Of a DNA stretch of 64,000 nucleotides, positions 17,015 to 63,597 are shown piece by piece (position 1 is the stretch's first letter; every line of letters begins with the position of its first letter). Under the pieces are notes generated by a model. The model made no database searches. It was not told the DNA's origin and saw nothing but the letters and a program-made list of their open reading frames with translations. A program made the translations under genes and the position numbers. Where the stretch lies: the NCBI GenBank assembly GCA_963674745.2, contig CAXXDV010000003.1:192001-256000 (forward strand), read 5' to 3'. The DNA comes from Desulfosudaceae bacterium (GTDB lineage Bacteria > Desulfobacterota > Desulfobacteria > Desulfobacterales > Desulfosudaceae).

Positions 17015-17031
17015 CTGGCATATCTTATGCA
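17015..17031 (+). promoter_or_regulatory. Candidate sigma54 (-24/-12) promoter of the T2SS cluster
   Basis: CTGGCATATCTTATGCA: GG (17017-18), N10, GC (17029-30); in the AT-rich intergenic region upstream of gspE. Confidence 0.65.
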
Positions 17032-17198
17032 TTGATTTTATCCATTAAATGGGTTGTCATCTTATTTTTTATGACAAAAAAACGATAAATGTTATAACGA
17101 TGAGAAGTATCCGGCAGGTTTGATTTCCCGGGGGTGGTAAATCGGCCGATGATGCCTTCCGGATAGTGATGCCAGGCCAATGATCAAGATGTTGAATT

Positions 17199-18734
17199 AT
17201 GTTTCAAGAAGGTGAAATGACTACTCTATCTTATAAGGATTATCCGGAGAAACCGGTCGTTATCGACAGCCTTTCGGTTGTGTTCATGAAGCAGTCAAGA
17301 TTCGTTCCATTGAACCTGGATGGTGACTTAATGAAAATCGCCATGGCCGATCCCGAAGACTTTTACACCATAGACACCCTTAAGCTGGCCTGTAACCTGG
17401 CCGTCGAGGTATACCGGGGCAACGAGGAAGATATCCTGGCGGCCATCGAGCGGTTATATGGTTCCGGAAGTCAGTCCATGGAGACGATTATTGAAGAAGC
17501 GGATAAAGATACCGACGATGTTTCGTCCGAGGGCGTCATTGATGCCGATCATCTTAGGGATATCGCTTCAGAAGCGCCGATCATCAGGCTGGTGAACCGG
17601 CTTATTTTAAATGCCGTGGAAGAAGGCGCCAGTGATATCCATTTCGAGCCCTTTGAAAACGAGTTCAAGGTCAGATACCGTATTGACGGTGTCCTGCACA
17701 ACGCCGAATCGCCGCCCAATCGATTGAAGGATGCCATTATTTCCAGGGTCAAAATCATGGCCAAAATGGATATTGCTGAAAGACGCCTTCCCCGGGACGG
17801 CAGGATCAAGCTCAAAGTGCTTGACAGGGAGATTGATTTTCGTGTTTCCACATTGCCGACCGTGTTCGGCGAAAGCCTGGTCATGCGGGTACTGGATCGG
17901 GAGGCACTGATTCTTGATCTTGAAAAACTGGGCCTGCCCGACGCGCTTCTCCCGGATTATATTGATTTAATCAAAAAACCTTACGGCATGATCCTGGTCA
18001 CCGGTCCCACCGGAAGCGGTAAAACCACCACCCTGTACACCACCCTGGCCAAGATCAATGCCCCGGAAAACAAGATTATTACCCTAGAAGAGCCCGTGGA
18101 ATATCAGCTGCGGGGCATTAACCAGATCCAGGTCAACACGAAAATCGGCATGACCTTTGCCAGTGGTCTGCGTTCCATCGTTCGACAGGACCCGGATATC
18201 ATTCTGGTCGGTGAAATAAGGGACAGGGAAACCGCGGAAACCGCTATCCAATCCGCCCTTACGGGCCACCTGCTGTTCAGCACCCTGCATACGAATGACG
18301 CGGCCGGCGCCATTTCCCGGCTGCTGGATATCGGTGTGGAAAATTTTCTGCTGAGCTCGACGCTGCTGGGTATTCTGGCCCAGCGGCTGGTCCGGGTAAT
18401 CTGCCCCAATTGCAGGCAGCAGGTAGTGCCGGAAGAAAAGTTGGTAAAAGCCATGAACCTGAGTCCGCGAGAGGTCCGGGAGGTGGAATTTTTTGCCGGG
18501 CGGGGATGTGATGCCTGCAACCATACCGGATTTAAAGGGCGGATCGGCATTTTTGAATATATCCCGGTTGATGAAGATATCAGAAGAGAAATTACGGCCA
18601 AGTCCGGCACCGAGCGGGTGAAGGCGGTGGCCAAAGAAAAAGGGCTGCTGACATTGCGGCAGGACGGCTGGAACAAGGTCAAACAGGGCATCACCACCAT
18701 TTCCGAAGTGTTGCGGGTAACGCTGGAGCAATAA
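17199..18734 (+). CDS. gspE: Type II secretion ATPase
   Basis: ASDIHFEP, DIAERRLP.DGRI, GPTGSGKTTT, EEPVEY, RQDPDIILVGEIRD, TGHL..STLHTND, CPNC...CDAC zinc motif. Confidence 0.93.
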   Translation: MFQEGEMTTLSYKDYPEKPVVIDSLSVVFMKQSRFVPLNLDGDLMKIAMADPEDFYTIDTLKLACNLAVEVYRGNEEDILAAIERLYGSGSQSMETIIEEADKDTDDVSSEGVIDADHLRDIASEAPIIRLVNRLILNAVEEGASDIHFEPFENEFKVRYRIDGVLHNAESPPNRLKDAIISRVKIMAKMDIAERRLPRDGRIKLKVLDREIDFRVSTLPTVFGESLVMRVLDREALILDLEKLGLPDALLPDYIDLIKKPYGMILVTGPTGSGKTTTLYTTLAKINAPENKIITLEEPVEYQLRGINQIQVNTKIGMTFASGLRSIVRQDPDIILVGEIRDRETAETAIQSALTGHLLFSTLHTNDAAGAISRLLDIGVENFLLSSTLLGILAQRLVRVICPNCRQQVVPEEKLVKAMNLSPREVREVEFFAGRGCDACNHTGFKGRIGIFEYIPVDEDIRREITAKSGTERVKAVAKEKGLLTLRQDGWNKVKQGITTISEVLRVTLEQ

Positions 18735-19964
18735 ATGTCCATTTATTCATATAAAGCAACGGATTCTGACGGCAGACTGGTTACCGGGACCCTGGAAGCG
18801 GCTGAAGAAAAGGATGCCGTAGCCGTGCTCAGGGATATGCGGTATATCCCCATCAGGATCACTCCTGTCAAAAGGAGTCCCCTGGGTCTGGATGCCGGCC
18901 TGTCAACGGGTATGAAAGCGGTTTTCAACCGGGTTTCTTCCAGGGATGTAGTGGCTTTCACCCAGGACCTGTCCACGCTGCTTGAAGCCGGCGTGCCCCT
19001 TGACCGGTCACTGTCTATTCTGATCGATGTGGCGGGCCGGGAAAAGTTTAAAAACATTCTCAGGGATGTGTTGAAAAGTATTCAGGGCGGAAGTTATCTG
19101 TCCAACGCGCTGGAAAAATACCCGCGGGTGTTTTCTTCTTTTTATGTCAGCATGGTCAAGGCCGGAGAAGCCGGCGGCGTTCTGGATGAGGTGCTCAAGC
19201 GACTCGGCAGTTTCCTCGAGAGCTCCCAGGAGTTTAAGGATTATATCAAGTCGGCCATGATTTACCCGGTATTTCTGGTGCTGGTCGGCGGTTTATCCAT
19301 TATTATCCTGCTGACTTTCGTGATGCCCAGGTTTTCCGTCATTTTTGCCGATATGGGGCAAACCATACCGCTGTCCACCCGAATGCTGCTGGTGCTGGGA
19401 ACGGTATTGAAGTCATATTGGCCGTTCATCCTGGGCGGTCTGGTGGCCGTATGTTTTTTGATCACGCGTTATCTGAAAACACCGGCCGGCAGTTTATGGC
19501 TGGACCGTTTCAAACTCAAATCGGCGCTCGTCGGTGAACTGGTCGGGAAAATCGAGGTGGCCCGGTTCGCCAGGACGCTGGGAACGCTGGAGCAAAGCGG
19601 GGTGCCTATTCTTCAGGCCCTGAACCTGGTGACGGGTATTGTCGGTAACCAGTTGATTTCCAGGCGCCTGGAAAGTGTTTACAACCAGGTCAAGAAAGGT
19701 GAAAAGCTGTCCCGCTCGTTGAGCGAAATCGATGTATTCCCGCCGCTGGCCATCCAGATGATCATTGTCGGCGAGGAAACCGGCCGGATGGGTGAAATGC
19801 TTCTCCGCCTGGCGGAAAATTACGAAAAATCATCACGGAACGCCATCAGTCGGATGATCAGTTTTCTGGAACCGGCCATGATTCTGGGGATGGGGATAAT
19901 CGTAGGGTTTGTCGTTATTTCGATGATGACAGCCATGTTCAGTGTTTATGAAATGCCTTTTTAA
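18735..19964 (+). CDS. gspF: Type II secretion inner-membrane platform protein
   Basis: FT..LSTLL.AGVPL, GEAGG.L, SAMIYP, GEETG, LEP motifs; three hydrophobic segments. Confidence 0.93.
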   Translation: MSIYSYKATDSDGRLVTGTLEAAEEKDAVAVLRDMRYIPIRITPVKRSPLGLDAGLSTGMKAVFNRVSSRDVVAFTQDLSTLLEAGVPLDRSLSILIDVAGREKFKNILRDVLKSIQGGSYLSNALEKYPRVFSSFYVSMVKAGEAGGVLDEVLKRLGSFLESSQEFKDYIKSAMIYPVFLVLVGGLSIIILLTFVMPRFSVIFADMGQTIPLSTRMLLVLGTVLKSYWPFILGGLVAVCFLITRYLKTPAGSLWLDRFKLKSALVGELVGKIEVARFARTLGTLEQSGVPILQALNLVTGIVGNQLISRRLESVYNQVKKGEKLSRSLSEIDVFPPLAIQMIIVGEETGRMGEMLLRLAENYEKSSRNAISRMISFLEPAMILGMGIIVGFVVISMMTAMFSVYEMPF

Positions 19965-19977
19965 GAGGATGTGCTGT

Positions 19978-20400
19978 ATGAAAAGTTTTAAAAACAGTCA
20001 GGGGTTTTCCCTTATGGAGCTTTTGATTGCCATGGTTATTCTGGCCCTGTTGGCCAGCCTGGTCGGTCCCAAGTTGTTTAAGAACATCGGCAAGTCTGAA
20101 CGTAAAACAGCCAAGGCCCAGATATCGCTTTTTGAAACCGGGATCGGCCTCTACCGGCTGGATGTGGGAAAATTCCCGACCATGGAACAGGGGCTTCAGG
20201 CACTCAGGGAAAAGCCCAACGGGGTGGAAAACTGGGACGGCCCTTATCTTGAGAAAGAGTTGCCGCTGGACCCCTGGGGACACCCTTATGTCTATCAATA
20301 TCCCGGGCAACATGGTGATTATGATATTGTTTCGCTGGGCGCGGACGGCAGTCCCGGCGGAGAAGATGAGAATAAAGACATTGCCAGCTGGACGAACTAA
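19978..20400 (+). CDS. gspG: Major pseudopilin
   Basis: G|FSLMELL prepilin site; YRLDVG.FPT.EQGL.AL, W.GPYL, DPWG.PY.Y..PG, SLGADG; RBS AGAGGA before ATG 19978. Confidence 0.95.
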   Translation: MKSFKNSQGFSLMELLIAMVILALLASLVGPKLFKNIGKSERKTAKAQISLFETGIGLYRLDVGKFPTMEQGLQALREKPNGVENWDGPYLEKELPLDPWGHPYVYQYPGQHGDYDIVSLGADGSPGGEDENKDIASWTN

Positions 20401-20971
20401 TACCACCGGGGCCCGGTTTCCGGCGTTCCGGCGCAATTATGGCGGCTTTACGCTGCTGGAGCTGATCGTCGTTCTGGTGATCGTCAGCCTCATGTCGGCC
20501 CTGATTGCGCCCAGGCTGACCGGGCCGATGCGCAACCTGGATTTGAAAACGGCGGCCAAAAGAATTTCAGCTTCCCTCCGATACGCTCGCAGCCGGGCCG
20601 CCACGGAAAAGGCCATTTATGTGGCACTGTTTGACTTTGACAACAACCGGCTGATCGTCGGGGACACCCCCCTGGCCATGCGGGATTTTCTTATTAATGA
20701 TCAGGCGGCGATTAAACGGGTATTGACGACGCAACTGGACAGGCATCCGGAGCGGCTGAAACTTTACCAGCCACCCGAAGGTATTAAGCTGGAAAAGGGC
20801 ATTTCGCGGGAAAATACGGTGGGTTCCGGTTTTTTTCCGGTTTTTTTCTTTCCCACCGGTGCCAGCAGCGGTGGTGAAATAATGGTGGCCAATCAACGGG
20901 GACGGCAGTACAGCGTCACCATTGATTTTATCACCGGCATGGTCCGATTATCAGAGGTGATGACGTCATGA
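20366..20971 (+). CDS. gspH: Minor pseudopilin H
   Basis: G|FTLLELIVVL, LRYARSRA, FFPTG.SSGG, DFITG.V. Start uncertain (ATG 20366 or TTG 20381); the track start at 20027 overlaps gspG. Confidence 0.82.
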   Translation: MRIKTLPAGRTNTTGARFPAFRRNYGGFTLLELIVVLVIVSLMSALIAPRLTGPMRNLDLKTAAKRISASLRYARSRAATEKAIYVALFDFDNNRLIVGDTPLAMRDFLINDQAAIKRVLTTQLDRHPERLKLYQPPEGIKLEKGISRENTVGSGFFPVFFFPTGASSGGEIMVANQRGRQYSVTIDFITGMVRLSEVMTS

Positions 20972-21360
20972 ACAAAGGGTTTACCCTGATAGAGGTCCTG
21001 GTGGCCATGTCCATCCTGGCTATCTCACTGGTGGTGGTCTTGCAGGTTTTTTCCGGCGGTTTGAAAGCGGCCCGCCTGTCGGATGCGTATACACAGGGTG
21101 TTTTTTATGCCAGAGAGAAAATGGACGAAATTCTTCTGGCCGAAGACCTGACCGCCGGGGTTATCCGTGGCGAGTTTGAGGACGGTTTCAGATGGCGGGC
21201 GGAGGCGCTGGGGATGGATCTCCCGGATGCAGAGGGGGTGAGGTTACCCTTTCGCGCTTTTAATATAAAGGTGGATGTCAGCTGGACGGAAGGATCAAAG
21301 GAAAAACATTTCGCGGTCAGCACCATCAAGCTGGTGGGACCGGCTGAGGATACCATCTGA
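20968..21360 (+). CDS. gspI: Minor pseudopilin I
   Basis: G|FTLIEVLVAMSIL; size and position in the cluster. Confidence 0.85.
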   Translation: MNKGFTLIEVLVAMSILAISLVVVLQVFSGGLKAARLSDAYTQGVFYAREKMDEILLAEDLTAGVIRGEFEDGFRWRAEALGMDLPDAEGVRLPFRAFNIKVDVSWTEGSKEKHFAVSTIKLVGPAEDTI

Positions 21361-22004
21361 TGAGGTACCGCAACAGAAAATGGTTTCCTGACGGGTTATC
21401 CAAAGACGGCTTTACGTTGCTGGAATTGCTGATATCGATGACCATTATGGCCATGATCGTGGTGATCATATTCGGCGGCTTCAGGGTCGGTGTCCGGGCC
21501 TGGGAAAAAGGTGAAAGTTCGGTTGCCGGTCGTCAGCGACAACGCATTGTGCTTGATTTGATCAGGCATCAGCTGGCGTCAATCTGCGCTGCGGAAGTCC
21601 GGGATCCGGAGGGTGAGCCGGTCCGTTTTAAGGGTAACAGAACATCCATGGCCTTTGTGTCCCACCTGGCGCTTGTCCCCGGGCCCCAGGCAGGGCCGGC
21701 TTATGTTCAATATGCCGTTCAAAAGAACGCCGGGGACGAGACGGTGCGCCTGGCCTTTTACGAAAGGGCGGCGACGTCGCCGGAAATGGAGACGGATCCG
21801 GAAGGCGGGTTTTACGAACTGCTTTCCGGTGTCAAAAGTATTGCCTTTGAATACTTAAAAATACGGACGGATGAAACGGAATCACCATGGCAGGAGAGCT
21901 GGGATGCCGCTTTTGACAGGGGGCTTCCCCAGGCCATCCGGATAACGCTTCTGGAAAACGAGGATAAATCGCCGGTCTATGTGATCGCGGCGGCAGGTAT
22001 GTGA
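21360..22004 (+). CDS. gspJ: Minor pseudopilin J
   Basis: G|FTLLELLI; C-terminal W..SW....LP.AIRI pattern. Confidence 0.85.
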   Translation: MRYRNRKWFPDGLSKDGFTLLELLISMTIMAMIVVIIFGGFRVGVRAWEKGESSVAGRQRQRIVLDLIRHQLASICAAEVRDPEGEPVRFKGNRTSMAFVSHLALVPGPQAGPAYVQYAVQKNAGDETVRLAFYERAATSPEMETDPEGGFYELLSGVKSIAFEYLKIRTDETESPWQESWDAAFDRGLPQAIRITLLENEDKSPVYVIAAAGM

Positions 22005-22017
22005 AGGACGGTGTTGC

Positions 22018-23028
22018 TTGAAGGGGTTTTTGAAAGACGAGCGCGGTATTGCGCTTATTCTGGTACTCTGGGTAATGGTGCTTCTGACGGTCATTGCGGG
22101 TGAGTTCTCTCATACCATCGGCACGGAAGTCGAAATAACCCGTAATTTCAAGGAAGAAACCCAGGCCTATTATATTGCCAAAGCCGGGATGTTCTGGATG
22201 ATCGGGGAACTGGTCGCCAATACCTACCTGCCGCATCCCGGATTTTTCAAGGGTAATGAAGATACGGCAGATGATTTACGCTGGCGACTGACCTATGATA
22301 TGCCCGCGATCCCGTTCGGAGAAGGGCAGTTTCAAGTTAGAAAGGAAAACGAAAGCGGGAAGGTCAATTTGAATCTGGCCGGTCGAGGACTGCTGCGGAT
22401 GATGCTCAATGATTTTGAAATTGAAGACGCCGAAAAAGAAATTATCGTGGACTCCATAATGGACTGGCGTGATCAAAACGGCCTGACCCATACCAACGGT
22501 GCCGAGAATGAGTATTATCAGTCACTTCCGGAGCCCTATAGGTGTAAGAACGGTGATTTTACAACCATAGAAGAACTGCTTCTTGTCAGAGGGGTGACAC
22601 CCGGGATATTCTATGGTGGATTACGGGAAATGGTGTCTGTCTGTCAGGATGCGGACGATTCGATTAAGGCCGGCAGCAAGCGAAAGGCAATGGTCGATTT
22701 CAACCGGATAAACATCAATGCCGCTTCGGCACGAATGTTGCGTTCCCTTCCCGGTATGACCGAGGACAGCGTTGAAGCGGTCCTGGCGTTTCGTGACAAA
22801 CGGAATTTCCGGTCACGGTCCGAGCTGTATACGGCTGTCGGGCCGGAAACGTACAGGGCCATTTCGACATATATGACAATGAAGCCATCGCCTTATTATA
22901 CACTTCAATCAACAGGGCTGGCCAGGGAGAATCAGGCGCAGAAGGGTGTCCGTGCGGTGGTTAAGATTGATCGCAAACTTGAAAAAGGTTATGAGATTAT
23001 CCAGTGGGTCGATGGTCTTGAATACTGA
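22018..23028 (+). CDS. gspK: Minor pseudopilin K
   Basis: G|IALILVLW without E5; ESGKVNLN, DSIMDWRD, EELLLVRGVT, ININAA...L.SLPG. Confidence 0.9.
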   Translation: MKGFLKDERGIALILVLWVMVLLTVIAGEFSHTIGTEVEITRNFKEETQAYYIAKAGMFWMIGELVANTYLPHPGFFKGNEDTADDLRWRLTYDMPAIPFGEGQFQVRKENESGKVNLNLAGRGLLRMMLNDFEIEDAEKEIIVDSIMDWRDQNGLTHTNGAENEYYQSLPEPYRCKNGDFTTIEELLLVRGVTPGIFYGGLREMVSVCQDADDSIKAGSKRKAMVDFNRININAASARMLRSLPGMTEDSVEAVLAFRDKRNFRSRSELYTAVGPETYRAISTYMTMKPSPYYTLQSTGLARENQAQKGVRAVVKIDRKLEKGYEIIQWVDGLEY

Positions 23029-23115
23029 TTCTGACAATGATATCAGTATATTTAAAAATCGCTTTTACAGCCAAAAGGGCTTTTATGCGGGTGGACGTCG
23101 CAGGGAGGGCGGGCT

Positions 23116-24486
23116 TTGAATTTTCAGGCTAGTGTCGGCATTAATATTGAAAAGCACCGGGTTTCGCTGGTTTACCTGAAAAGATCGCTTAAGGGGGTCT
23201 CTCTGGCGGGACAGGCCATCCATGGCCTTGAAAAGCCGGAAGGTGAAAGCCGGGCAGCTGAAGTCGCCGAGCGCGTTAACGAATTTTTAAACAACCACCA
23301 GATTCCCTCGGCGGATATCTTTATCGGCATTCCCCGGGGCCTGGCCATCCTTCGCTATCTTGAACTGCCGCTGGCCGTCAAAGAAAACCTCAAAGGAACA
23401 TTGACTTATGAGATGGAGAAATATGTTCCATTGGCCGTGAGTGATATCTATTTTGACTTTCAGATACTTGAAGAGGACAAGGCAGCGGGAAACATGACGG
23501 TCCTGCTGATCGCTGTCCGCAAAGCGGTGATTGACCCCTATCTTCAAACCGGCAACCGGCCGGGTACAGGCATATCGGGGATAGAGATCAGTTCAACCGC
23601 TCTGGTGAACGCCTTTTCGCGCAAACCAGGGGCTCCGGAATCAGACGTCTATGCCTTTGTGTTGAACCGGGATGATCACTATGAGCTGGGTGTTGTCGAA
23701 AAGAACCGGTTGAGCTACTCCAGGCACGTCCCCAAAAGTCAAAAAGGCGATGACCCGCGGTTTCTTGTGAGTGAAGAACTGGACCTGCTCAGAAAAAAGG
23801 TCGGGTCTGAACCGGACAAGCTTGAAATTGTCATTTCCAGCACCGACGACAGTGTAATGGAACCGGTCAGCCAACGGGAAGACCTCGATGCCGGCGCCGT
23901 GGACCTTTCCGGAACGGGACTTTCGTCGGACCTTCTGGCGTCCGCCTACGGTCTGGCTTTAAAAGGTCTTCACGGCATGCCGATGGATATCAATCTGCTT
24001 CCCGTTGATTTGAGAAAAAAGGTCAGCCAGGCGCCTTATTATACTTTGTTTGCCCTGGTCGGCCTGCTTATCATTGCCATCCTGGCCTGGGGCGCCAGCA
24101 ACGTCATTCAACAGCAACGCACCGTCGCCGGACTCGAAAGGGAATTAAAACAGCTCAGGACTGAAGCGGCGGCCGTGAACCGCATCAGGGACCGCATGAA
24201 TGAAGTGGAGCGCCGGATAGAAGAGGTGAATGTGTTTCGAAAGCAGCATGTTCCGGCCCTGAATCTGCTGCGGGAATTGAGCGGTGAGATTCCTGATACT
24301 GCCTGGTTCAACCGTTTTTATATGACGGAGGATAAAGGGGATATTGAAGGTTATACCGATTCCGCTTCGGCATTGATCCCCCTGCTGGCATCTTCGCCCT
24401 TGCTCAAAGATGTGGCCTTTCTGTCGCCCATCACCAAGGATGGCGATGGTAAGGAGAAATTCCGGATCGGTTTTAATTTAAGATGA
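23116..24486 (+). CDS. gspL: GspL-like protein (PilM-like cytoplasmic part, TM segment, PilN-like periplasmic part)
   Basis: R.LELP...ENL...L.YE.EKY.P...DIYFD, AYGLAL, INLLP, TM segment, coiled coil, ELS..IPD.AW. Confidence 0.78.
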   Translation: MNFQASVGINIEKHRVSLVYLKRSLKGVSLAGQAIHGLEKPEGESRAAEVAERVNEFLNNHQIPSADIFIGIPRGLAILRYLELPLAVKENLKGTLTYEMEKYVPLAVSDIYFDFQILEEDKAAGNMTVLLIAVRKAVIDPYLQTGNRPGTGISGIEISSTALVNAFSRKPGAPESDVYAFVLNRDDHYELGVVEKNRLSYSRHVPKSQKGDDPRFLVSEELDLLRKKVGSEPDKLEIVISSTDDSVMEPVSQREDLDAGAVDLSGTGLSSDLLASAYGLALKGLHGMPMDINLLPVDLRKKVSQAPYYTLFALVGLLIIAILAWGASNVIQQQRTVAGLERELKQLRTEAAAVNRIRDRMNEVERRIEEVNVFRKQHVPALNLLRELSGEIPDTAWFNRFYMTEDKGDIEGYTDSASALIPLLASSPLLKDVAFLSPITKDGDGKEKFRIGFNLR

Positions 24487-24511
24487 TATACTGGATGAAC
24501 GGTTTGTTGAT

Positions 24512-25123
24512 ATGAAAAAACCTGTCATGGAAACATTAAAACGTCAGTGGCTGGAACTGGCCGCCAACCGGAGAACAAGAGCCATGTTAATCGGGTGCGC
24601 GATATTGTTTTTGTTCGTAATCGTTTTCCGGGTTTACCCTGTTTACGAGGGGATGGCGGGTGGTGAAACGGGCCGGACCGTGCTTGAAAAAAGTCTTGTC
24701 AAGTACCGGCAGGTGGTTGCTGGAAAAGCCGCGCTGGAAGCCGGGCTGACCATGCTTGAAAAATCCCTTCAACAGGCTGAAACAGGCCTGTTAGGCGGCG
24801 AAACCGCCGCGCTGGCGGCCGTTGACGTACAGAACACCCTTAACGAGATCGCCTATGCCAGCGGTGTGGAAATACAGCGCATGCAGGTGCTCAAACCGGA
24901 CACAAACAAGCAGGCATCGCCGCTTTATATCAACGTGCCGGTTCAATTCAGTGTCGTCGTCACCATCCGGCAACTGAAAGATATATTGTATAAAATCGAG
25001 ACCCATCCTCAGTTCTTTTTAACGTTGCAATGGATCAGGATCAACACCGCCGGGACCAGAGAGCCCAAACAGATCCGGTGCGATATGGCCGTTGCGGGTA
25101 TTATGAAAAATGTTAGCGAGTAA
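24512..25123 (+). CDS. gspM: GspM-like protein
   Basis: N-terminal TM segment, coiled coil, ferredoxin-like C-terminal pattern; follows gspL. Confidence 0.7.
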   Translation: MKKPVMETLKRQWLELAANRRTRAMLIGCAILFLFVIVFRVYPVYEGMAGGETGRTVLEKSLVKYRQVVAGKAALEAGLTMLEKSLQQAETGLLGGETAALAAVDVQNTLNEIAYASGVEIQRMQVLKPDTNKQASPLYINVPVQFSVVVTIRQLKDILYKIETHPQFFLTLQWIRINTAGTREPKQIRCDMAVAGIMKNVSE

Positions 25124-25128
25124 TCTAT

Positions 25129-25884
25129 ATGCTATTTGTTCCTTCCAGAATCTGGCTGATTAATATTGTCCTGACGGCATTGGTTGTGTTTTTCGGCATC
25201 CTGAGCGTTGACGTCTGGACCGGTAAACCCCCCGCGGTCCATGACCGTTCGGACGTTACGGATGCAAAAGCGCACCCGCCGGTCAAAAAAGTGACCAGCC
25301 GGATAACACCGCCGCCGGCAAATTATGACATCGTGGCGGAAAAAAATCTTTTTTCTCCGGACCGGATGGCTTCGACAACCGGGGCGTCGGATCAACCTCA
25401 GCCTCAGATTTCAGGGCATAAGATTTTTCTTTACGGCGTGGTTGAGATGGCCGGTCAAAAGCAGGCGCTGGTCAATCATCCCCTGACCGGGGAGGTGCCG
25501 GGCACGCGCGGGCAGACAGAAGATCAGTGGGTGAAAGAAGGCGATCTCATCGGTAACCTGAAGGTCGCTCAAATCGGCCAAGAAAAGATCGTTCTGGTCG
25601 AAGACGGGCAACGGTATGAAATCTTTCTCCATGATGAGAACAAGCCGGCACGCCGTCAGAACCCCGGCGCCCGGCCGCCGGCCGCCCCCACCGTCGTAGT
25701 GACCGGGGCGGAACCCAAAGCCCCGGCCCCTGCTGCTGTCAGCAGTGCGGCGCAGCCCCCGTCCCGACCGGCGCCGGCGCCTGAACCCGATGCGGCTAAA
25801 GAGGAGAAAAAGAAGCAGGTGACAGAGGATGGATATGAAATCGTGGAAACACCTTTTGGACCATTTAAAAGAAGGATAAAATAA
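25129..25884 (+). CDS. GspC-like protein without PDZ domain; Pro/Ala-rich linker and TPFG tail
   Basis: N-terminal TM segment, NLFSP.R, LYGVV...ALV...WVKEGD.IG..KV.QI...IVL pattern; directly before the secretin. Confidence 0.6.
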   Translation: MLFVPSRIWLINIVLTALVVFFGILSVDVWTGKPPAVHDRSDVTDAKAHPPVKKVTSRITPPPANYDIVAEKNLFSPDRMASTTGASDQPQPQISGHKIFLYGVVEMAGQKQALVNHPLTGEVPGTRGQTEDQWVKEGDLIGNLKVAQIGQEKIVLVEDGQRYEIFLHDENKPARRQNPGARPPAAPTVVVTGAEPKAPAPAAVSSAAQPPSRPAPAPEPDAAKEEKKKQVTEDGYEIVETPFGPFKRRIK

Positions 25885-25889
25885 AGTTT

Positions 25890-28193
25890 ATGAAACCCAT
25901 CACAGCTATTTTGTTCAGCATGTTTCTGTTTGCTTTTTTGTTTGCGGGTTGCGCGGGATCGCAGGTCCGCAATAAAGAGACGCCTGTTGCCGATGACCAG
26001 GTCAGGTATGAGGTCGTCACAACGCCCTTTGGTGACATTAAAAGAGAGGTCCGGCAGACCGATGCAGACACGGCTGAAGCCGTAGCGGAAAGATCCGGAC
26101 TTGAACCGGAAGAAGGCTTCGAGATCATATCCACGCCCTTTGGCTATATCAAACGAAAGAAGCTGCCGGACTCGCCCGACGCCTCGGCTGTCGCTGAAGC
26201 GGCATTGCCTCAAGAAGCCCTTTCGCAACCCGGAATTGAGTCCAAATCCGTCTTGGCCGCCGAACCGGTCAAAATACCGGAACCGGTAAAAACACCGCCG
26301 GCAGCAGAGGAAATATCCGCCTCTGAACCCGTCAAAAAAGAGGCTCCTGCCAAAACCGGTGACATCAGTTTTGATTTTGACGAGGCCGAGCTTGCTTCGG
26401 TCATCCGGGTCATGGCTGATTTTTTGGAAATAAACTACATTATTGACCCTGGCGTGGGCGGCAAGGTGACGATTCATACGGCCGGTCAACTGAACGCGGC
26501 CGACGTTTTCCCTGTTTTTTATCAGACCCTTGAGGTGAACGGGCTGACGGCCATCAAGGAGGGAAATGTTTACCGGATCACAACCCTCAAAGATGCATCC
26601 CGTCAACCACTTACCACCCGCCTTGCCGGGGACAGAAAAAAGATCCCGCCCGAAGAACGCATCGTTCTTCAGATCATACCCCTTAAATATATTTCTGCCG
26701 AAGAGGTGACCAAAGTCATCACGCCTTTTATTTCAGCCGACGGAACGATTATTTCAGAGGGAAATTCAAATGCGCTCCTGGTGGTTGATAAAGGTATCAA
26801 TATTCTCAAAATTCTCAAGCTGGTAGCGGCCTTTGACGTCAGTGTGTTTGAAAGGACAAACTACCGGTTTTACACGCTGGAAAATGCCAATGCCGAAGAT
26901 GTCTCAAAGACGCTGGGCGAAATATTACCGCAGTCCTCGGGTGGAAACGGCCAGGTGCGGTTTATCCCCATTAAATGGTTGAACGCGGTGCTGATCGTCA
27001 GTTCAAGTGATGATGTGTTTGACCGGGCCGACAGCCTGATCGACCAACTGGATGTTCCCGGCGAAGGTTCCCAGCCCCAGATTTACGTATATTCGGTCAA
27101 AAACGGGATGGCGTCCGATCTCGGTGATACATTGCGCGCTATTTTCGGCGCGACCGGGCAAAATATTCAAGCCGATCAACGGGAAAACGTAGCGACCAAC
27201 CCGTTTGCCAGAGATGTCGCGAACAGCAAAAAAGAAACCGGTGAAGCGGAACCAAATACCGCGACGGTTTCGACCGCCAGGCCGGCCGCGACGCCCTCAG
27301 ACCCTTCGGCCACCTTGCGGGGAGACATCCGGATCACCGACGATCAGATTCGAAACGCCCTGATTATTGAAGCGCTTCCCGGCGATTACAAGGTCGTTGA
27401 GCGGCTTCTTGAACGCCTGGATATTCTGCCCCGGCAGGTGCTGATCGATGTGACCATCGCCGAGGTCTCCCTTGGCGAGGGAACGGAACTGGGTATCGAG
27501 TGGACATTCAAGAAAGATGATTGGAGCGAGGAGGGCTCTTTGTCGGCCTTGATCGGTGGTACCGGGCTTCAATACGTCCTGGGGCTGTCGGAAAAATGGC
27601 AGGCTGCGCTGCATGCCCTGGCCGATGACAGCAAGCTGAATATCATTTCTACACCCAGTGTGCTGGCATCGGACAATAAACAGGCGAAGATCGATGTGAC
27701 CACGGAAGTGCCCATTCCCAGCACCAGCTACACTTATGTGAACGAGGGTGACAACCTGCTCGAGACCAGTGTCGAGTACAGGGATACCGGGGTGATCCTG
27801 GAAGTGACGCCGCATATCAACGAGTACGGACTGGTCACCATGGATATCAGCCAGGAGGTGAGCAACGTCGGGGCTCTGGTAAAAGTGGCCGGAGAGGACT
27901 ATTACTCTTTTGACCGGAAAAAGATTTTGACTTCGCTGACGGTTAAGCACAACCAGTCGATTGTCATCGGCGGGCTGATCAGCAATGAACGGAAAAACGC
28001 TTCCTCCGGCGTGCCCTGGCTGACCAAGGTCCCGCTTATCCGCTGGTTTACGGGAACGGAGAAAAACGAGGCGTCCAGATCGGAACTGATTGTCATGATT
28101 ACCCCCCACGTTATTACCAGCCTTGAGGATGTGGATACCATCAGCCGGGAGTTTGCGAACAAAATTTCGGATTTTCAAAGGGCGTTTGAATAA
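25890..28193 (+). CDS. gspD: Type II secretion secretin, lipoprotein type
   Basis: Lipobox FAG|C; N0 (FDFDEAEL..VI...NYIIDP.V.GKVTI); N-domain repeats; secretin core QVLIDV.IAEV, DTGVILEVTPHIN, IVIGGLI, GVPWL..VP, ELIVMITP. Confidence 0.95.
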   Translation: MKPITAILFSMFLFAFLFAGCAGSQVRNKETPVADDQVRYEVVTTPFGDIKREVRQTDADTAEAVAERSGLEPEEGFEIISTPFGYIKRKKLPDSPDASAVAEAALPQEALSQPGIESKSVLAAEPVKIPEPVKTPPAAEEISASEPVKKEAPAKTGDISFDFDEAELASVIRVMADFLEINYIIDPGVGGKVTIHTAGQLNAADVFPVFYQTLEVNGLTAIKEGNVYRITTLKDASRQPLTTRLAGDRKKIPPEERIVLQIIPLKYISAEEVTKVITPFISADGTIISEGNSNALLVVDKGINILKILKLVAAFDVSVFERTNYRFYTLENANAEDVSKTLGEILPQSSGGNGQVRFIPIKWLNAVLIVSSSDDVFDRADSLIDQLDVPGEGSQPQIYVYSVKNGMASDLGDTLRAIFGATGQNIQADQRENVATNPFARDVANSKKETGEAEPNTATVSTARPAATPSDPSATLRGDIRITDDQIRNALIIEALPGDYKVVERLLERLDILPRQVLIDVTIAEVSLGEGTELGIEWTFKKDDWSEEGSLSALIGGTGLQYVLGLSEKWQAALHALADDSKLNIISTPSVLASDNKQAKIDVTTEVPIPSTSYTYVNEGDNLLETSVEYRDTGVILEVTPHINEYGLVTMDISQEVSNVGALVKVAGEDYYSFDRKKILTSLTVKHNQSIVIGGLISNERKNASSGVPWLTKVPLIRWFTGTEKNEASRSELIVMITPHVITSLEDVDTISREFANKISDFQRAFE

Positions 28194-28697: not shown

Positions 28698-29639
28698 ATG
28701 CCACGACTGCTCTGGGGGCGGCTGCTTCTGGTTGCCCTCTGCCTTTCTTCGGCTTGGGTTACCGGCGTACCCGGCGCGGATGCCCGCAAGCCCGGGGTAG
28801 CCGTGTTTGTCTCCCGGGATATCATGCCGTATATCGCTGCCGCGGAGGGCATGAGCACGGTTCTTGCGGAAAATGCCGTTGCGTCAGTCGAAGTCTTTTC
28901 TCTTGAAAAAATTAAAGGCAAAAGCCGGGACCGGCTCATGGAAAGGATCGAGGAAGATGAATTCGCCCTTTTTATCGCCATTGGCCCTGAAGCAGTAGAA
29001 CTGATTTCGGAAAAAGCCGCGCCGGAAAATAGGAACTGGTTGTATTCCATGATTTTAAACCCGCCGGAGGTGTCTGAGGCGGCGGCAACCGCCTGCGGGG
29101 TGTCTCTGAATATTCCGGCCTGGAAACAGCTGGAGATGGTTTCCCTCGGCCTTCCCACCGCCAAACGGCTGGGGCTTCTTTATGATCCCCGCTACAACGC
29201 GTCGTTTTTCGCCGATGCTACGGCCCAGGCCGGTTTATGCAAACTGGACATCGTTCCCTTGCCCATATCGTCCAAAAAAGACATTCCGGCGGTTTTAAAA
29301 CAGAACTGGGACAATATCGACGCTTTATGGCTGATTCCCGATCAGACGGTCATCTCGGAAAGTATCGTGCAGTATATCATCAAAGAATCGCTTTTCCGGG
29401 ATACACCCGTCATCGGTTATAACCGTTTTTTTTATGAAAGTGGCGCGGCACTGGCGTTTGTGTTTGATTATACGGACATCGGCCGGCAGACCGGGCGGAT
29501 GGCGGCCGACGTGCTCAAGGGGAAACCATGCGAGAAGGCCATGCCTGTTTTCCGGGTCTGGCAGAACCGGCGGGTGATCAATAAACTGGGGTTGAGTATT
29601 AGTGAAAACCAAACATCACCCATAGAGGCCGGGCCATGA
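28698..29639 (+). CDS. Periplasmic ABC-substrate-binding-like protein, probably a sensor accessory
   Basis: Signal peptide; AIGP.A, P..KRLGLLY.P, DALWLIPD.TV, V.SGA-like motif, IG.Q.G.MA; overlaps the kinase start; no permease or ATPase nearby. Confidence 0.78.
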   Translation: MPRLLWGRLLLVALCLSSAWVTGVPGADARKPGVAVFVSRDIMPYIAAAEGMSTVLAENAVASVEVFSLEKIKGKSRDRLMERIEEDEFALFIAIGPEAVELISEKAAPENRNWLYSMILNPPEVSEAAATACGVSLNIPAWKQLEMVSLGLPTAKRLGLLYDPRYNASFFADATAQAGLCKLDIVPLPISSKKDIPAVLKQNWDNIDALWLIPDQTVISESIVQYIIKESLFRDTPVIGYNRFFYESGAALAFVFDYTDIGRQTGRMAADVLKGKPCEKAMPVFRVWQNRRVINKLGLSISENQTSPIEAGP

Positions 29640-32388: not shown

Positions 32389-32440
32389 TCCCGGGCTCAA
32401 ACCGGACAATATTTTTATAAAAGGTGCTTGTCATAAGGTA

Positions 32441-34498: not shown

Positions 34499-34555
34499 GT
34501 TCCAGGTTCAGGGTTCAAGGTTCAAGGTTCGGGGTTCGGGGTTCGGGGTTCGGGG
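34498..34555 (+). repeat. 7-nt tandem repeat (GGTTCRR)n
   Basis: GGTTCCA GGTTCAG GGTTCAA GGTTCAA GGTTCGG GGTTCGG GGTTCGG GGTTCGG. Confidence 0.85.
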
Positions 34556-34579
34556 TGTTGCGGGCCGTTCACCAGGGGT

Positions 34580-34886
34580 GTAGGGGCAGGCCCCCGTGCC
34601 TGCCCAAGGGCAACCACAGGGGGTTGCCCCTACGGGTCGTGGTGGCCGATTATGAACAATGTAGGGGCAGGCCCCCGTGCCTGCCCGGCAAAAGGGCACC
34701 CACAGGGGGGTGCCCCTACGGGTTGTGGTGGCCGATTATGAACAATGTAGGGGCAGGCCCCCGTGCCTGCCCAAGGGCAACCACAGGGGGTTGCCCCTAC
34801 GGGTCGTGGTGGCCGATTATGAACAATGTAGGGGCAGGCCCCCGTGCCTGCCCGGCAAAAGGGCACCCACAGGGGGGTGCCCCTAC
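34580..34886 (+). repeat. Array of four GTAG-type REP doublets (BIME/REPIN-like), ABAB
   Basis: Units 34580-34633, 34661-34719, 34747-34800 and 34828-34886, each GTAGGGGCAGGCCCCCGTGCCTGCCC, a short spacer, then GGGCA(A/C)CCACAGGGGG(T/G)TGCCCCTAC; near-identical 27-nt linkers. Confidence 0.9.
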
Positions 34887-34983
34887 AATAAAAGGGCATG
34901 GGTTCAAGGTGACATGCCCGAAGGTTGAAATGCTTAGGCCAGGTGTTAGGGTTTAAGGACTTATGTGGCTTCCAGGTGGGGGT

Positions 34984-35295: not shown

Positions 35296-35312
35296 CCGGC
35301 ACGGTCTTTGTA
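35296..35312 (+). promoter_or_regulatory. Candidate sigma54 promoter of the CAP-protein gene (variant -12)
   Basis: CCGGCACGGTCTTTGTA: good -24 GGCACG and correct spacing, but GT instead of GC at -12. Confidence 0.45.
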
Positions 35313-36716: not shown

Positions 36717-36745
36717 TTGACAACAGGCGGGTCTTTAGCTATAGA
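36717..36745 (+). promoter_or_regulatory. Strong sigma70-type promoter of the Cys-rich surface protein gene
   Basis: TTGACA-N17-TATAGA with AT-rich sequence upstream; implies a 5' UTR of about 150 nt. Confidence 0.7.
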
Positions 36746-36902
36746 CAGAAAAACAATATCAATCAAGACGATAGAAAGGAGGGGGATAAAAAAATAAAAT
36801 CAAGTTGTTGATGTTGTAAAGTGTATGTAAAGTATGAAGTTGTTGAAAAGTTGTGAAGTTGTAAAATTGATTGTTGTTAAACGAACTGCAAAGGAGAAAA
36901 CA

Positions 36903-38069: not shown

Positions 38070-38126
38070 TTGTAGGTACGACCTGTTGTGTTCTGCTTGA
38101 CGGCAGATACGCAGATCTGAAAATCG

Positions 38127-38160: not shown

Positions 38161-38210
38161 CATTTTACCAGTAAAATCCCACCCACTGATACTTCCGACC
38201 AGGTGACACA

Positions 38211-44283: not shown

Positions 44284-44291
44284 GTGAAAGA

Positions 44292-58666: not shown

Positions 58667-58668
58667 GG

Positions 58669-60471: not shown

Positions 60472-60479
60472 TAATGGCC

Positions 60480-61330: not shown

Positions 61331-62398
61331 ATGGGACAATTGAATGACAAACGGGTACTGGTGACCGGCTGTTGCGGTACGGTCGGCGGAGAACTGGTCC
61401 GCCAACTGCTGTCGGACTATGCCGTTAAAGAACTGGTGGGGCTGGACAACAATGAAAGTGAACTGTTTTTTACCCAGCAGCGCTACAATGATTATTCGGC
61501 GCATTTTTTTCTGGCTGATGTCCGGGACCAGCAACGTTTGATACGGCTGTTTTCAGGGGTGGATATCGTTTTTCATGCGGCTGCTTTCAAACACGTTATC
61601 CTGTGCGAGGTGTCGCCGTTCGAAGCCGTTCAGACCAATATCAACGGTGTACAGAATGTTATCCTGGCCGCTACTGAAAACCGGGTCAAAACAGTTGTGT
61701 TTACCAGCTCGGACAAGGCCGTCAACCCGACCAATGTCATGGGGACCTCCAAGCTGATGGGCGAACGGTTGATGACGGCCGCCAACAGTAACCTGCGCGG
61801 TGGTTTATCGGCGTTTATTTCCACCCGTTTTGGAAACGTTCTCGGGTCCCGGGGATCGGTAATTCCCATTTTCAGGGATCAGATCCGCAAGGGCGGGCCG
61901 GTTACCATTACTGACGAGGAGATGACACGGTTTATCATGAGTATCCGACAGGCAGTGCAGCTGGTCATTGATTCCGTGGCCCTTGCCAGGGGTGGCGAAG
62001 TCTTTGTCACCAAGATGCCGGTTATCCGCATCCTGGATCTGGCCCATGTCATGATCGCAGAACTGGCGGGAAATTATGGCCATTCGCCGGAAGATATAAA
62101 GATCGAAATCATCGGTAGCAAGCCCGGTGAGAAACAATACGAAGAACTGATGACCGGTGAGGAGGTTCGCCGTTGTGTTGAACTGGAGCGGTATTTCGTG
62201 GTCAAGCCGGCCTTTACCTCACTTTACCGGGACCTGACCTATTCCTATCCCGATGTGATCAACGGCGTGGTTGACCGGCCTTATCATTCGGCCAATGAGC
62301 CCGCCCTGGACCGTGAGCAGCTGCGCCGTTTCCTGATCGATAACGAACTGCTGGAGGGTGAGGAAGAAGATACGTTCCGGCCGGACAGGCGCTATTAG
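61331..62398 (+). CDS. UDP-sugar 4,6-dehydratase-like protein (CapD/PseB superfamily, soluble)
   Basis: TGCCGTVG.EL, FHAAA.KHV..CE..P.EAV.TN..G, SSDKAVNPTNVMG.SK, RFGNVLGSRGSV.P.F, MTRF, PGEK.YEEL. Confidence 0.85.
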   Translation: MGQLNDKRVLVTGCCGTVGGELVRQLLSDYAVKELVGLDNNESELFFTQQRYNDYSAHFFLADVRDQQRLIRLFSGVDIVFHAAAFKHVILCEVSPFEAVQTNINGVQNVILAATENRVKTVVFTSSDKAVNPTNVMGTSKLMGERLMTAANSNLRGGLSAFISTRFGNVLGSRGSVIPIFRDQIRKGGPVTITDEEMTRFIMSIRQAVQLVIDSVALARGGEVFVTKMPVIRILDLAHVMIAELAGNYGHSPEDIKIEIIGSKPGEKQYEELMTGEEVRRCVELERYFVVKPAFTSLYRDLTYSYPDVINGVVDRPYHSANEPALDREQLRRFLIDNELLEGEEEDTFRPDRRY

Positions 62399-62403
62399 GG
62401 GTT

Positions 62404-63597
62404 GTGGTTATGTCGAACATTCTGATTCTCGGTGGTGACGGTTATCTGGGCTGGCCGACGGCCATGTATTTTTCCGCCCGCGGCCATGACGTCACGGTGG
62501 TCGATAATTATTTTCGTCGAAATGCCTGTACGGAACTGGATGTGGGCATGCTTTACCCCATCCCGACACTTGTTGCCCGGGCCAAAATCTGGCATGAAAA
62601 AACCGGTAGAGAGATCCGGGTGGTCATCGGCGACCTGACGGACCCCGAGATCATGCGGGGCCTGTTTGACGGCCGGGTGACCTATGTCTGGCCCCCGGAA
62701 AAGGCTTTTGCGGGCATCCCGGAAACGGTTTTTCATTATGCCGAACAACCTTCGGCGCCTTATTCGCTGATCAATTACAAGTATGCCAATATCACGATTA
62801 CGAATAATCTTCTGGTGACCAACAACCTGGTGTTCGCACTCAAGGATTTTGCGCCGTCGACCCATGTGGTCCATATCGGCACCATGGGTGAATACGGCAC
62901 GCCTGATATTGATATTGAAGAAGGATGGCTCGACATCACCCACAAGGGCCGGACGGATCGGTTTCTGTTTCCCCGACAGGCAAGTTCTCTGTATCACACC
63001 ACCAAAATTATGGATACAGACCTGATGTGGTTCGGGGTGCGCATGTGGAACCTGCGGATAACCGACCTGATGCAGGGTCCGGTCTACGGTTTTAAGACCG
63101 AAGAAACCGGCGATGATGAGCGGTTGTACACGCTTTTTAATTATGATGAGATTTTCGGCACCATCATCAACCGGTTTGTCCTTCAGGCGGTTGTCGGGTA
63201 TCCGCTGACGGTTTATGGAAAAGGGGGGCAGACACGCGGTTATCTGAATATTAACGATACCCTGCAATGTGTTTACAAGGCCTTTGAAACACCGGCCAAA
63301 GCAGGTGAACTGCGGATTTTTAATCAGATCATGGAAACCTTTTCGGTCAATGAACTGGCGGAAAAGGTGCGAGCCGTGGGTAGTGCCCGGGGACATGAGG
63401 TGACGGTCGACCATATTGAAAACCCCCGCAAAGAAGCCGAGGAACATTATTACAATCCGGTTTACCAGGGCCTGATTGATATCGGTGTCGAACCCCATTA
63501 TCTGACCGATGAGGTACTGGCATCTTTTTTTGAGGCGGTTGAAAAGTTTCGGGATAATGTGCGTCGGGATGTGATTTTCAGGGGCGTCAAGTGGTGA
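62404..63597 (+). CDS. sqdB: UDP-sulfoquinovose synthase (SqdB/SQD1/Agl3 family)
   Basis: GGDGYLGWPT, VDN..RR, H.AEQPSAPYS, GTMGEYGTP..DIEEGW, S.YH.TK..D, TDL.QGPVYG, F.YD.IFGT..NRF, PLTVYGKGGQTRGYLNI.D, NPR.E.E.HYY. Confidence 0.9.
   Translation: MVMSNILILGGDGYLGWPTAMYFSARGHDVTVVDNYFRRNACTELDVGMLYPIPTLVARAKIWHEKTGREIRVVIGDLTDPEIMRGLFDGRVTYVWPPEKAFAGIPETVFHYAEQPSAPYSLINYKYANITITNNLLVTNNLVFALKDFAPSTHVVHIGTMGEYGTPDIDIEEGWLDITHKGRTDRFLFPRQASSLYHTTKIMDTDLMWFGVRMWNLRITDLMQGPVYGFKTEETGDDERLYTLFNYDEIFGTIINRFVLQAVVGYPLTVYGKGGQTRGYLNINDTLQCVYKAFETPAKAGELRIFNQIMETFSVNELAEKVRAVGSARGHEVTVDHIENPRKEAEEHYYNPVYQGLIDIGVEPHYLTDEVLASFFEAVEKFRDNVRRDVIFRGVKW

Follow-up and report, generated by a model that had tools for sequence, protein, structure and literature searches.

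In a 64,000-nucleotide stretch of the genome of a Desulfosudaceae bacterium (the window, G000:C3:192001-256000; the genome, G000, comprises 5.55 Mb on three contigs, and coordinates below are window positions unless a contig is named), positions 17199-42949 most probably form a conserved module in which an accessory type II secretion system (T2SS) serves the cargo, a reading to which we assign a probability of roughly 85%. The block runs, in collinear order, from the secretion genes (GspE to GspD) through a binding protein, a histidine kinase, a response regulator and a receptor to genes for a CAP-domain protein, a cysteine-rich protein carrying exactly 20 Cys (here the 20-Cys protein), a small protein, a transglutaminase-like protein, a lipoprotein and a selenoprotein. 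Window proteins were assigned to families with Pfam and NCBIfam, by curated equivalog cut-offs where these were available, and the flanks of relatives' loci were searched by tblastn with all window proteins. About 20 genes were found to keep their collinear order in nine or more GTDB families, protein identities falling to 25-45%, and such collinearity in many genomes indicates that the arrangement is not due to chance.

The T2SS adjoins the cargo block in 15 of the 18 order-level loci that retain at least 16 kb of upstream flank (G129, G111, G146, G214, G134, G118, G063, G135, G164, G235, G299, G265, G075, G231 and G093), a count that leaves out four genomes whose contigs are too short (G201, G081, G098 and G076). 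The T2SS is not adjacent in G045, G089 and G012, the last of which has the T2SS-to-receptor block on another contig. Within an order-level sample of 301 genomes, used for the co-occurrence of the 20-Cys, transglutaminase-like and GspG genes and tallied by hand from the search tables, the 20-Cys family was present in 29 genomes and matches to the transglutaminase-like protein (835 aa) in 35, about 27 of them full-length or split between contigs. The two genes occurred together in 25 genomes, and were adjacent wherever the places of both were listed. The transglutaminase-like gene was also found, at E <= 1e-60, in 14 genomes of a phylum-wide sample of 401, 12 of which lie outside the order. A preliminary description of this DNA, made from its letters and open reading frames, had proposed a new envelope system with a dedicated T2SS and had named the co-occurrence of its genes among relatives as the check; the adjacency and co-occurrence found here bear that expectation out.

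The secretion system appears complete, with eleven gsp genes across 17199-28193 recognized by Pfam and NCBIfam:

17199-18734, forward strand: GspE, the T2SS ATPase (PF00437, E = 1e-140; TIGR02533, 650.5 bits against a cut-off of 630.25)
18735-19964, forward strand: GspF, the inner-membrane platform protein (PF00482, in two stretches)
19942-20400, forward strand: GspG, the major pseudopilin (PF08334, E = 9e-42)
about 20429-20971, forward strand: GspH, a minor pseudopilin (Pfam; the set from GspH to GspK was recognized by PF12019, PF07963, PF11612 and PF21687/PF03934)
20968-21360, forward strand: GspI, a minor pseudopilin (Pfam)
21360-22004, forward strand: GspJ, a minor pseudopilin (Pfam)
22018-23028, forward strand: GspK, a minor pseudopilin (Pfam)
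23116-24486, forward strand: GspL, of the PilM/PilN type (PF11104 and PF05137)
24512-25123, forward strand: GspM, subtype b (PF10741)
25129-25884, forward strand: GspC-like protein (NF041515, GspC_delta, E = 4.6e-5, below the cut-off of that model)
25890-28193, forward strand: GspD, the secretin (PF00263, PF03958 and PF21305; TIGR02517, 433.2 bits against a cut-off of 351.35)

No gene for the prepilin peptidase GspO lies within the gsp cluster, the remainder of the genome not having been searched for it. The window T2SS is additional to a second, ordinary T2SS of the same genome: a search of G000 returned a second GspG gene at C3:2168498 and a second GspD-size secretin at C3:2.16 Mb, plus one PilQ-size and one small secretin. 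GspG matches were found in 270 of the 301 order-level genomes, and at least two of them (matches, which are not copy numbers) in 26 of the 27 module-bearing genomes versus 62 of the 274 without the module. Together with the collinearity over nine or more families and the shared occurrence of the 20-Cys and transglutaminase-like genes, this extra GspG makes it very improbable that there is no functional unit here, and that an ordinary T2SS lies by chance beside unrelated exported proteins and a glycan locus. Such an accident would fit two kinds of exception. Related T2SS clusters have other neighbours in G059 and G162, and in G045, G089 and L010 the module stands with no T2SS alongside. L010 is a locus of a Syntrophales metagenome-assembled genome (flank of 10 kb) in which the CAP, Cys-rich, small, transglutaminase-like, selenoprotein and lipoprotein genes stand beside a Wzx-type glycan locus.

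Some of these loci carry features of their own. In G045 (L036/L037, G045:C53:116000-155999), two Cys-rich paralogues flank a module in rearranged form, and the surrounding 20 kb hold no T2SS. The G162 cluster (L068, G162:C2:151700-168150) consists of a T2SS followed by genes for an SNF2 helicase, a LamG-domain protein and a GDSL lipase and then by wzm/wzt, a pair 70-75% identical to that of the window; the same combination of T2SS and glycan genes may here serve another set of cargo. The length of the GspG match, tried as a marker of the module-type T2SS, proved crude, such clusters being present in G059 and G162, which lack the module. Upstream of the window T2SS, a sigma-54-like site (TGGCAT-N5-TATGCA) occurs at 17016, ~183 nt before gspE, and a similar site is present in the same-genus genome G129. 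The T2SS operon may be sigma-54 dependent in this genus, the flanks of other genomes being too short to compare.

The best-marked gene of the cargo block is the one encoding the 20-Cys protein, which is followed directly by a terminator:

36903-38069, forward strand: 20-Cys secreted protein of 388 aa (Sec signal peptide; no Pfam family)
38126-38166, forward strand: intrinsic terminator directly 3' of the 20-Cys gene (14-pair stem, then a T run)

The mature protein (365 aa, 37.1 kDa) contains a single Lys and much Ala, Gly, Thr and Ser, and its pI is 4.05. Its architecture comprises an N-terminal Cys-rich beta domain and a C-terminal beta-sandwich of the TM1070/ASRT type at residues 281-388 (AlphaFold2 model, mean pLDDT 75). 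The sandwich matched the fold of TM1070 (1nc7; Z 12.5, rmsd 2.7, 103 residues aligned) and that of the Anabaena sensory rhodopsin transducer ASRT (2ii7; Z 9.6), with carbohydrate-binding modules further down the list; residues 29-278 gave weak matches only, to Gram-positive pilin-like folds (Z ~5.5), which we count as no more than a common arrangement. Twenty full-length relatives, retrieved by a word-indexed search, share seven invariant and five nearly invariant Cys. The clustered ones at CxC 91/93 and CxxCxxCxC 262-270 are invariant and CC 278/279 is nearly so (at least 90%), and the total number of Cys differs among homologues and is sometimes odd. A profile hidden Markov model (HMM) scan of 1.84 billion representatives returned 1309 proteins at E <= 1e-3, of which 473 reached E <= 1e-10 and 189 reached E <= 1e-30. 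The family falls into two architectures, of about 370-430 aa and about 570-650 aa, and every name recovered for it is 'hypothetical protein'.

A strong terminator follows the 20-Cys gene in all three genomes looked at (G000, G129 and G134). The codon adaptation of the gene, 0.749 (84th percentile), is an uninformative proxy for abundance, because the median of ribosomal and EF-Tu genes is 0.713 and that of the background 0.704. Two genes for VKOR-thioredoxin (DsbA-like) fusions (G000:C1:1687353-1688591 and C3:2465126-2466229) render oxidative folding in the periplasm feasible; a search of G000 found no DsbB, and the fusions look like the route of this genome to periplasmic disulfides. We tentatively read the 20-Cys protein as the structural subunit of a cell-surface or matrix assembly, surface-layer (S-layer)-like in a broad sense, and hold this at somewhat less than even odds. 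Plausible support for a structural subunit comes from three S-layer/T2SS precedents, from the terminator, the composition and the glycan neighbourhood, and from a co-localizing enzyme of a cell-wall transglutaminase family.

The three precedents each pair a T2SS with an S-layer gene, as far as the consulted portions of the cited articles go. In Aeromonas salmonicida, the sps T2SS genes and vapA are inserted between wzm and wzt (PMC4483657), and the parallel that the preliminary description drew with this A-layer system is accurate. The window shares with it an extra T2SS beside a presumed single major cargo, embedded in an ABC-2 (Wzm/Wzt) glycan locus. Unlike the A-layer protein, however, the cargo of the window is Cys-rich and was unrelated to it by all searches made. 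The window further adds a sigma-54 two-component set with its binding protein, a TonB-dependent receptor, a double CAP protein, a transglutaminase-like protein and a selenoprotein/lipoprotein pair. In Pseudoalteromonas tunicata and marine Gammaproteobacteria, the S-layer gene slr4 lies directly downstream of its own T2SS operon and its product has a Sec signal peptide (PMC7821379), akin to the position and signal peptide of the 20-Cys protein. Slr4 is larger (about 57-59 kDa versus 37.1 kDa), its family PF19526 gives no match to the 20-Cys protein, and only a short beta-sandwich motif aligns with the Slr4-like protein of the order; in the consulted text of the Slr4 article the words 'cysteine' and 'transglutaminase' each occur zero times.

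In the third system, that of NpdA from Paracidovorax, Delftia and further Beta- and Gammaproteobacteria, the S-layer gene is preceded by ~12 gsp genes, and the genome holds two gsp clusters, one of which (gsp1) is tied to that gene (PMC10765051). Two clusters are likewise present in G000. NpdA (52 kDa) and the 20-Cys protein showed no sequence relation, and the part of the NpdA article consulted names no regulator, receptor, transglutaminase or selenoprotein in the neighbourhood. The layout of the window, an extra T2SS with adjacent cargo, is thus of a known kind, but its cargo family, accessory genes and regulatory wiring seem to be new to the open-access literature searched, in which we found no description of the gene combination, supplements lying outside that search.

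Between the T2SS and the exported proteins stand the three genes of the signalling module, the receptor gene and a possible promoter element:

28698-29639, forward strand: periplasmic ABC-type substrate-binding protein (PF04392)
29636-31024, forward strand: HAMP histidine kinase (PF00672, PF00512 and PF02518)
31036-32388, forward strand: sigma-54-dependent response regulator (PF00072, PF00158 and PF02954)
32381-34498, forward strand: TonB-dependent outer-membrane receptor (PF07715 and PF00593)
35297-35312, forward strand: degenerate sigma-54-like -24/-12 element CGGCAC-N5-TTTGTA, ~83 nt upstream of the CAP gene

This set of four occupies the same place in 13 of the 15 T2SS-linked loci, the exceptions being the family-f10 genomes G146 and G093. 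The binding protein is itself collinear in those 13 of 15, and the receptor is 44-76% identical and collinear in relatives. No transporter genes were found near the binding protein in its neighbourhood, and it is probably a ligand sensor for the kinase. The regulator scored below every NCBIfam equivalog cut-off, PrsR included (411 versus 502.6), and the receptor comes closest, among NCBIfam models, to those for B12, siderophore and heme receptors, with scores far short of each cut-off. We scanned for sigma-54 sites with the pattern TGGCAC-N5-TTGCW, keeping GG and GC fixed and scoring out of 11 positions. In 15 of 19 loci (16 of 19 at 8 matches or more), a site with at least 9 matches occurred in the ~100 nt before the CAP orthologue. 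Such sites were absent upstream of the binding-protein gene (0/14), the transglutaminase-like gene (0/12) and the receptor gene (0/15, four loci having weaker 8-match sites). The rows for the region upstream of gspE were unusable for most loci, where the flanks are cut, and those of G265 and G299 are artefacts. In the window itself, no canonical sigma-54 site was present at one mismatch or fewer.

The placement of sites before CAP in most loci suggests that the cargo block, from the CAP gene on, is very likely driven by the adjacent regulator in most genomes. The preliminary description had noted a signalling module, and the binding protein, kinase and sigma-54 regulator are indeed present; it overlooked the TonB-dependent receptor and the sigma-54 promoter before CAP, which point to inducible, signal-dependent expression. 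A sigma-70-like promoter read by hand upstream of the 20-Cys gene (TTGACA-N17-TATAGA, ~36719-36747) was not relied on, as its -10 element lacks the final T and the promoter scan did not list it. The spacer between receptor and CAP (34490-34886) contains three 21-nt tandem units and two 167-nt direct repeats of G+C-rich palindromes. A 26-nt half-unit of this repeat occurs 187 times in the genome at three mismatches or fewer, which marks a REP-like dispersed repeat family, and the repeat creates a spurious open reading frame at 34225-34956.

The receptor and the solute-sensor set bring in another explanation, which we regard as unlikely, namely that the Cys-rich protein is a secreted 'metallophore' for metal, metal-sulfide or sulfane species that is delivered to the TonB-dependent receptor. 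The binding protein, kinase and regulator would then sense the imported species, and the selenoprotein would handle bound chalcogen or thiols. The 13 of 15 linked loci with sensor and receptor, the inducible sigma-54 expression and the B12, siderophore and heme models nearest to the receptor (far below cut-off as they are) would all suit such a role, as would the invariant clustered Cys with the nearly invariant CC pair, and the variable, sometimes odd Cys counts, which imply that not all cysteines need be in disulfides. G146 and G093, however, keep the T2SS, Cys-rich and transglutaminase-like genes (and G146 also the lipoprotein and selenoprotein, the downstream flank of G093 lying outside the data) without sensor, receptor and CAP, so that uptake is not part of the core. 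In addition, the block encodes no inner-membrane transporter, Pfam and NCBIfam gave no match to a metal-binding family, an enzyme with four copies of the cargo's domain would have no obvious role, and the terminator and composition of the 20-Cys gene suit a structural protein.

That enzyme is encoded by the last forward-strand gene of the block:

38879-41386, forward strand: GP42-type transglutaminase-like protein of 835 aa (PF16683, 46.2 bits versus 25, over only 38 residues)

It consists of a catalytic-type domain (~45-292), a PPC/collagen-binding-like domain (292-400; fold Z 11-12) and four beta-sandwich repeats (400-835), with a model pLDDT of 73. Residues 65-292 match the fold of GP42 (3tw5) with Z 15.1 over 217 residues at 22% identity (Foldseek E = 2.6e-9), and by profile the protein matches 3tw5 with E = 1.9e-17 over four stretches. 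A PWxGxxWP motif, the Cys at the catalytic position and the histidine of an FH pair align between the two proteins. By profile and fold, then, the N-terminal domain is a member of the GP42 family, as the preliminary description's identification of a transglutaminase had it, and the enzyme is a putative transglutaminase. Cys112 is invariant in 12 of 12 sequences and aligns with the S of 'GISHAW' in the crystallized GP42 chain, an S that we infer to occupy the place of the catalytic Cys in the published 'CH' motif; His166 is invariant too and aligns with a GP42 His. The GP42 transglutaminase of Phytophthora sojae is described with this 'CH' active-site motif in the consulted part of PMC10318531; unlike it, the bacterial protein adds the PPC-like domain and the four repeats, and the motif itself is kept in only one of the 12 orthologues.

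The beta-sandwich is shared between enzyme and candidate substrate. Compared as families, the 20-Cys and 835-aa proteins align by hhalign with a probability of 94.8% (E = 5.2e-8; pairwise BLASTP E = 0.004), and the alignment pairs the C-terminal sandwich of the 20-Cys protein with the last repeat of the enzyme. The matching of domains claimed in the preliminary description is therefore real, but it is not exclusive to this pair, at least three further secreted proteins of G000 carrying the same sandwich. These other carriers lie at L002:187-2148 (G000:C3 about 724310-726271), L005:703-3015 (reverse strand) and L004:1024-2553 (reverse strand). One has three K319L-like PKD domains and two sandwich copies that share 42-46% identity with the C-terminus of the 20-Cys protein, and one of the sandwich-carrying secreted proteins has a weak DUF5719 match. 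The TM1070/ASRT-type sandwich, as yet unnamed, seems to be in wide use among the exported proteins of this group.

The same enzyme suggests a role in polymer degradation, PUL/CUT-like, which we take to be less likely still than scavenging. Here the 835-aa protein would be a secreted papain-fold protease or amidase and the CAP and Cys-rich proteins accessory binders; the TonB-dependent receptor would admit the products, and the binding protein and kinase would sense them, as in the parallel of Vibrio ChiS/CBP. Its papain-superfamily fold, with invariant Cys and His and the GP42 'CH' motif not kept, fits such a function. So does its PPC/collagen-binding-like domain, of a type typical of secreted peptidases, and so do the receptor with its periplasmic sensor and the inducible sigma-54 promoter. 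Yet Pfam and NCBIfam recognized no glycoside hydrolase, peptidase family or inner-membrane importer in the block, and the core survives without receptor and sensor in G146 and G093. The best-marked gene, with its own terminator, encodes a non-enzymatic Cys-rich protein, and the frequent glycan-synthesis neighbourhood is biosynthetic rather than catabolic.

Two further secreted proteins flank the 20-Cys gene:

35395-36645, forward strand: secreted double CAP/SCP-domain protein (PF00188, 55.9 bits versus 21.1, in two stretches)
38211-38882, forward strand: secreted protein of 223 aa (no Pfam or NCBIfam match)

The mature CAP protein (43 kDa) has a pI of 4.05, and had no matches among PDB sequences. 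The stop of the 223-aa gene overlaps the start of the transglutaminase-like gene (ATGA), which suggests translational coupling of the two. Orthologues of the 223-aa protein (over 40% of the query covered) were found in 7 of the 11 loci on which all downstream-flank counts rest (G129, G111, G214, G134, G118, G135 and G164), and L010 has a 252-aa frame at the same position. Short PDB matches of this protein to designed beta-propeller proteins, the only ones obtained, were taken as spurious. The double CAP, 20-Cys, 223-aa and transglutaminase-like proteins make up the block of four signal-peptide proteins seen in the preliminary description, which Pfam and sequence confirm.

Convergent to these genes lie the last two of the module:

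41393-41824, reverse strand: small lipoprotein (lipobox LITGC in the sequence)
41837-42949, reverse strand: UshA-like periplasmic selenoprotein of 370 aa, read through one TGA

Lipoprotein orthologues were found in 10 of the 11 loci and selenoprotein orthologues in 8 of the 11. All eight of the latter have an in-frame stop at the position of the selenocysteine codon (TGA, 42788-42790), which upholds the convergent lipoprotein/selenoprotein pair proposed earlier. As a candidate for the SECIS element, a 7-bp G+C-rich hairpin begins 15 nt after the UGA, its fold z-score of 0.18 not being statistically distinctive. The scaffold, whose first metallophosphoesterase metal-binding motifs are presumably replaced, matches 5'-nucleotidases (E = 2e-12), and the UshA-like selenoprotein models NF041198 and NF049981 score below their curated cut-offs (126.1 versus 275 and 61.2 versus 140 bits). 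Both families are listed as selenoproteins in the table of a 2026 review (PMC13188914, consulted in part), and the window protein resembles them in its 5'-nucleotidase-like scaffold and single selenocysteine near the N-terminus. Unlike these families as described, it is tied to a lipoprotein and a T2SS cargo block, a partnership that the consulted part of the review does not mention. The lipoprotein matched no PDB sequence below E 0.7.

The module lies inside a glycan locus, with sugar-nucleotide genes before the T2SS and wzm/wzt after it:

12248-16966, forward strand: sugar-nucleotide genes (UDP-glucose dehydrogenase, two epimerase/dehydratases, GDP-mannose 4,6-dehydratase and epimerase; Pfam)
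43492-45029, forward strand: Wzm/Wzt ABC-2 glycan exporter (PF01061 and PF00005)

The placing of a T2SS cluster (17199-28193) within a glycan locus in the preliminary description is thereby correct. The sugar-nucleotide genes are context, outside the conserved module. Methyl-, sulfo-, glycosyl- and acyl-transferase genes follow wzm/wzt, a pair found within 20 kb of the module in 6 of 10 loci and hence a frequent but not constant neighbour. A sulfated glycan, also counted as part of the system before, is not borne out as a conserved part, sulfotransferase homologues lying beside the module in one of 10 loci only, that of the same-genus genome. Where the glycan locus ends, a UDP-sulfoquinovose-synthase-like gene (62404-63597; NF041015, 402 bits against a cut-off of 575) stands beside three or four sulfotransferase-domain genes. 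Near the start of the window, an aromatic amino-acid operon (2157-9655) opens with a DeoC/LacD-type aldolase and a type II 3-dehydroquinate synthase (PF01959), followed by the remaining shikimate, chorismate and prephenate enzymes; the first two form the alternative 'archaeal' entry into the shikimate pathway.

Several observations weigh against the reading of the 20-Cys protein as an exported surface subunit and against parts of the mechanism outlined below. The module is found without an adjacent T2SS (G045, G089 and L010), and similar T2SS clusters without the module (G059 and G162). A sigma-54 two-component switch with a TonB-dependent receptor suits inducible uptake better than a constitutive coat, and a canonical sigma-54 site is missing before the CAP gene of G000, its congener G129, and G063. 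Cysteines are few or absent in classical S-layer proteins, versus 20 here, and 37 kDa is at the small end of their range; of the S-layer composition criterion (acidic, Lys-poor, few or no Cys), the pI of 4.05 and the one Lys fit and the 20 Cys do not. The columns of Lys30 and Gln43 are conserved at only 70% and 85%. In place of the 'CH' motif the window enzyme has C-L-H, and the loss of the motif in 11 of 12 orthologues means that transglutaminase chemistry is not assured and that a protease role is equally possible. The presence of the beta-sandwich in other secreted proteins of G000 (of 653 aa with PKD repeats, 770 aa and 509 aa) implies that it is not a private targeting tag of the 20-Cys/transglutaminase pair.

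Membership of the Slr4 family was not confirmed: PF19526 had no match in G000 at E <= 1, matched one of 20 members of the 20-Cys family (E = 0.0047) and none of 20 sampled distant relatives, and hhalign of the family with the sole Slr4-like protein found in the order gave a probability of 3%. After these failed HMM tests we file the 20-Cys protein as resembling S-layer/T2SS systems in layout, and not as a member of a known S-layer family. The preliminary description had called the system analogous but unrelated to the A-layer one, and the HMM tests did not confirm a relation to Slr4. The phrase is nevertheless not fully tenable, since language-model features put the two halves of the 20-Cys protein closest to clusters with PF19526 in 12-45% of their members (scores 0.96 and 0.84; a lead only).

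If the 20-Cys protein does act as a structural subunit, the module could work as follows. The accessory T2SS would export a small, fixed set of co-encoded Sec-dependent proteins, its main cargo being the acidic, Lys-poor, Cys-rich protein of 37 kDa with its own terminator. This subunit would self-assemble at the cell surface or in the matrix, where its C-terminal beta-sandwich may hold it on surface glycan. The four sandwich copies of the transglutaminase-like enzyme would co-localize it with the subunit, which it could cross-link or process. Before export, the periplasmic UshA-like selenoprotein and its lipoprotein partner might handle the subunit's thiols in a redox role. The set of binding protein, kinase and regulator would switch on the cargo block from the sigma-54 promoter at the CAP gene, possibly in response to a solute admitted by the TonB-dependent receptor. 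In its most specific form, the proposal is of an inducible, covalently stabilized surface lattice or fibre in anaerobes of the Desulfobacterales/Syntrophales type. It would have a T2SS-exported disulfide-rich subunit whose thiols are matured by the selenoprotein, a glycan-held GP42-type enzyme polymerizing it via Lys30/Gln43, and a sigma-54 switch fed by the TonB-dependent receptor. Taken as a whole, this combination is a long shot. What probability remains among all these readings we leave to functions that we have not thought of.

In our assessment, sulfate-reducing and syntrophic Thermodesulfobacteriota have been little studied with respect to their surface proteins. The conserved block of ~20 genes and 25 kb reported here offers a dedicated export machine, a candidate subunit, a bacterial protein related to an oomycete cell-wall transglutaminase, and a selenoprotein. 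If the 20-Cys protein is indeed structural, the theme of an extra T2SS with an S-layer gene would extend from Gamma- and Betaproteobacteria to anaerobic Thermodesulfobacteriota, and would gain covalent and redox maturation steps not known for S-layers; were the full mechanism true, it would represent the first transglutaminase-cross-linked, selenoprotein-assisted bacterial surface layer. If the protein instead scavenges metal or sulfur species, the block would constitute a new protein-based uptake route in sulfidic habitats. Under either interpretation, it would provide the first conserved functional context for the UshA-like selenoprotein family.

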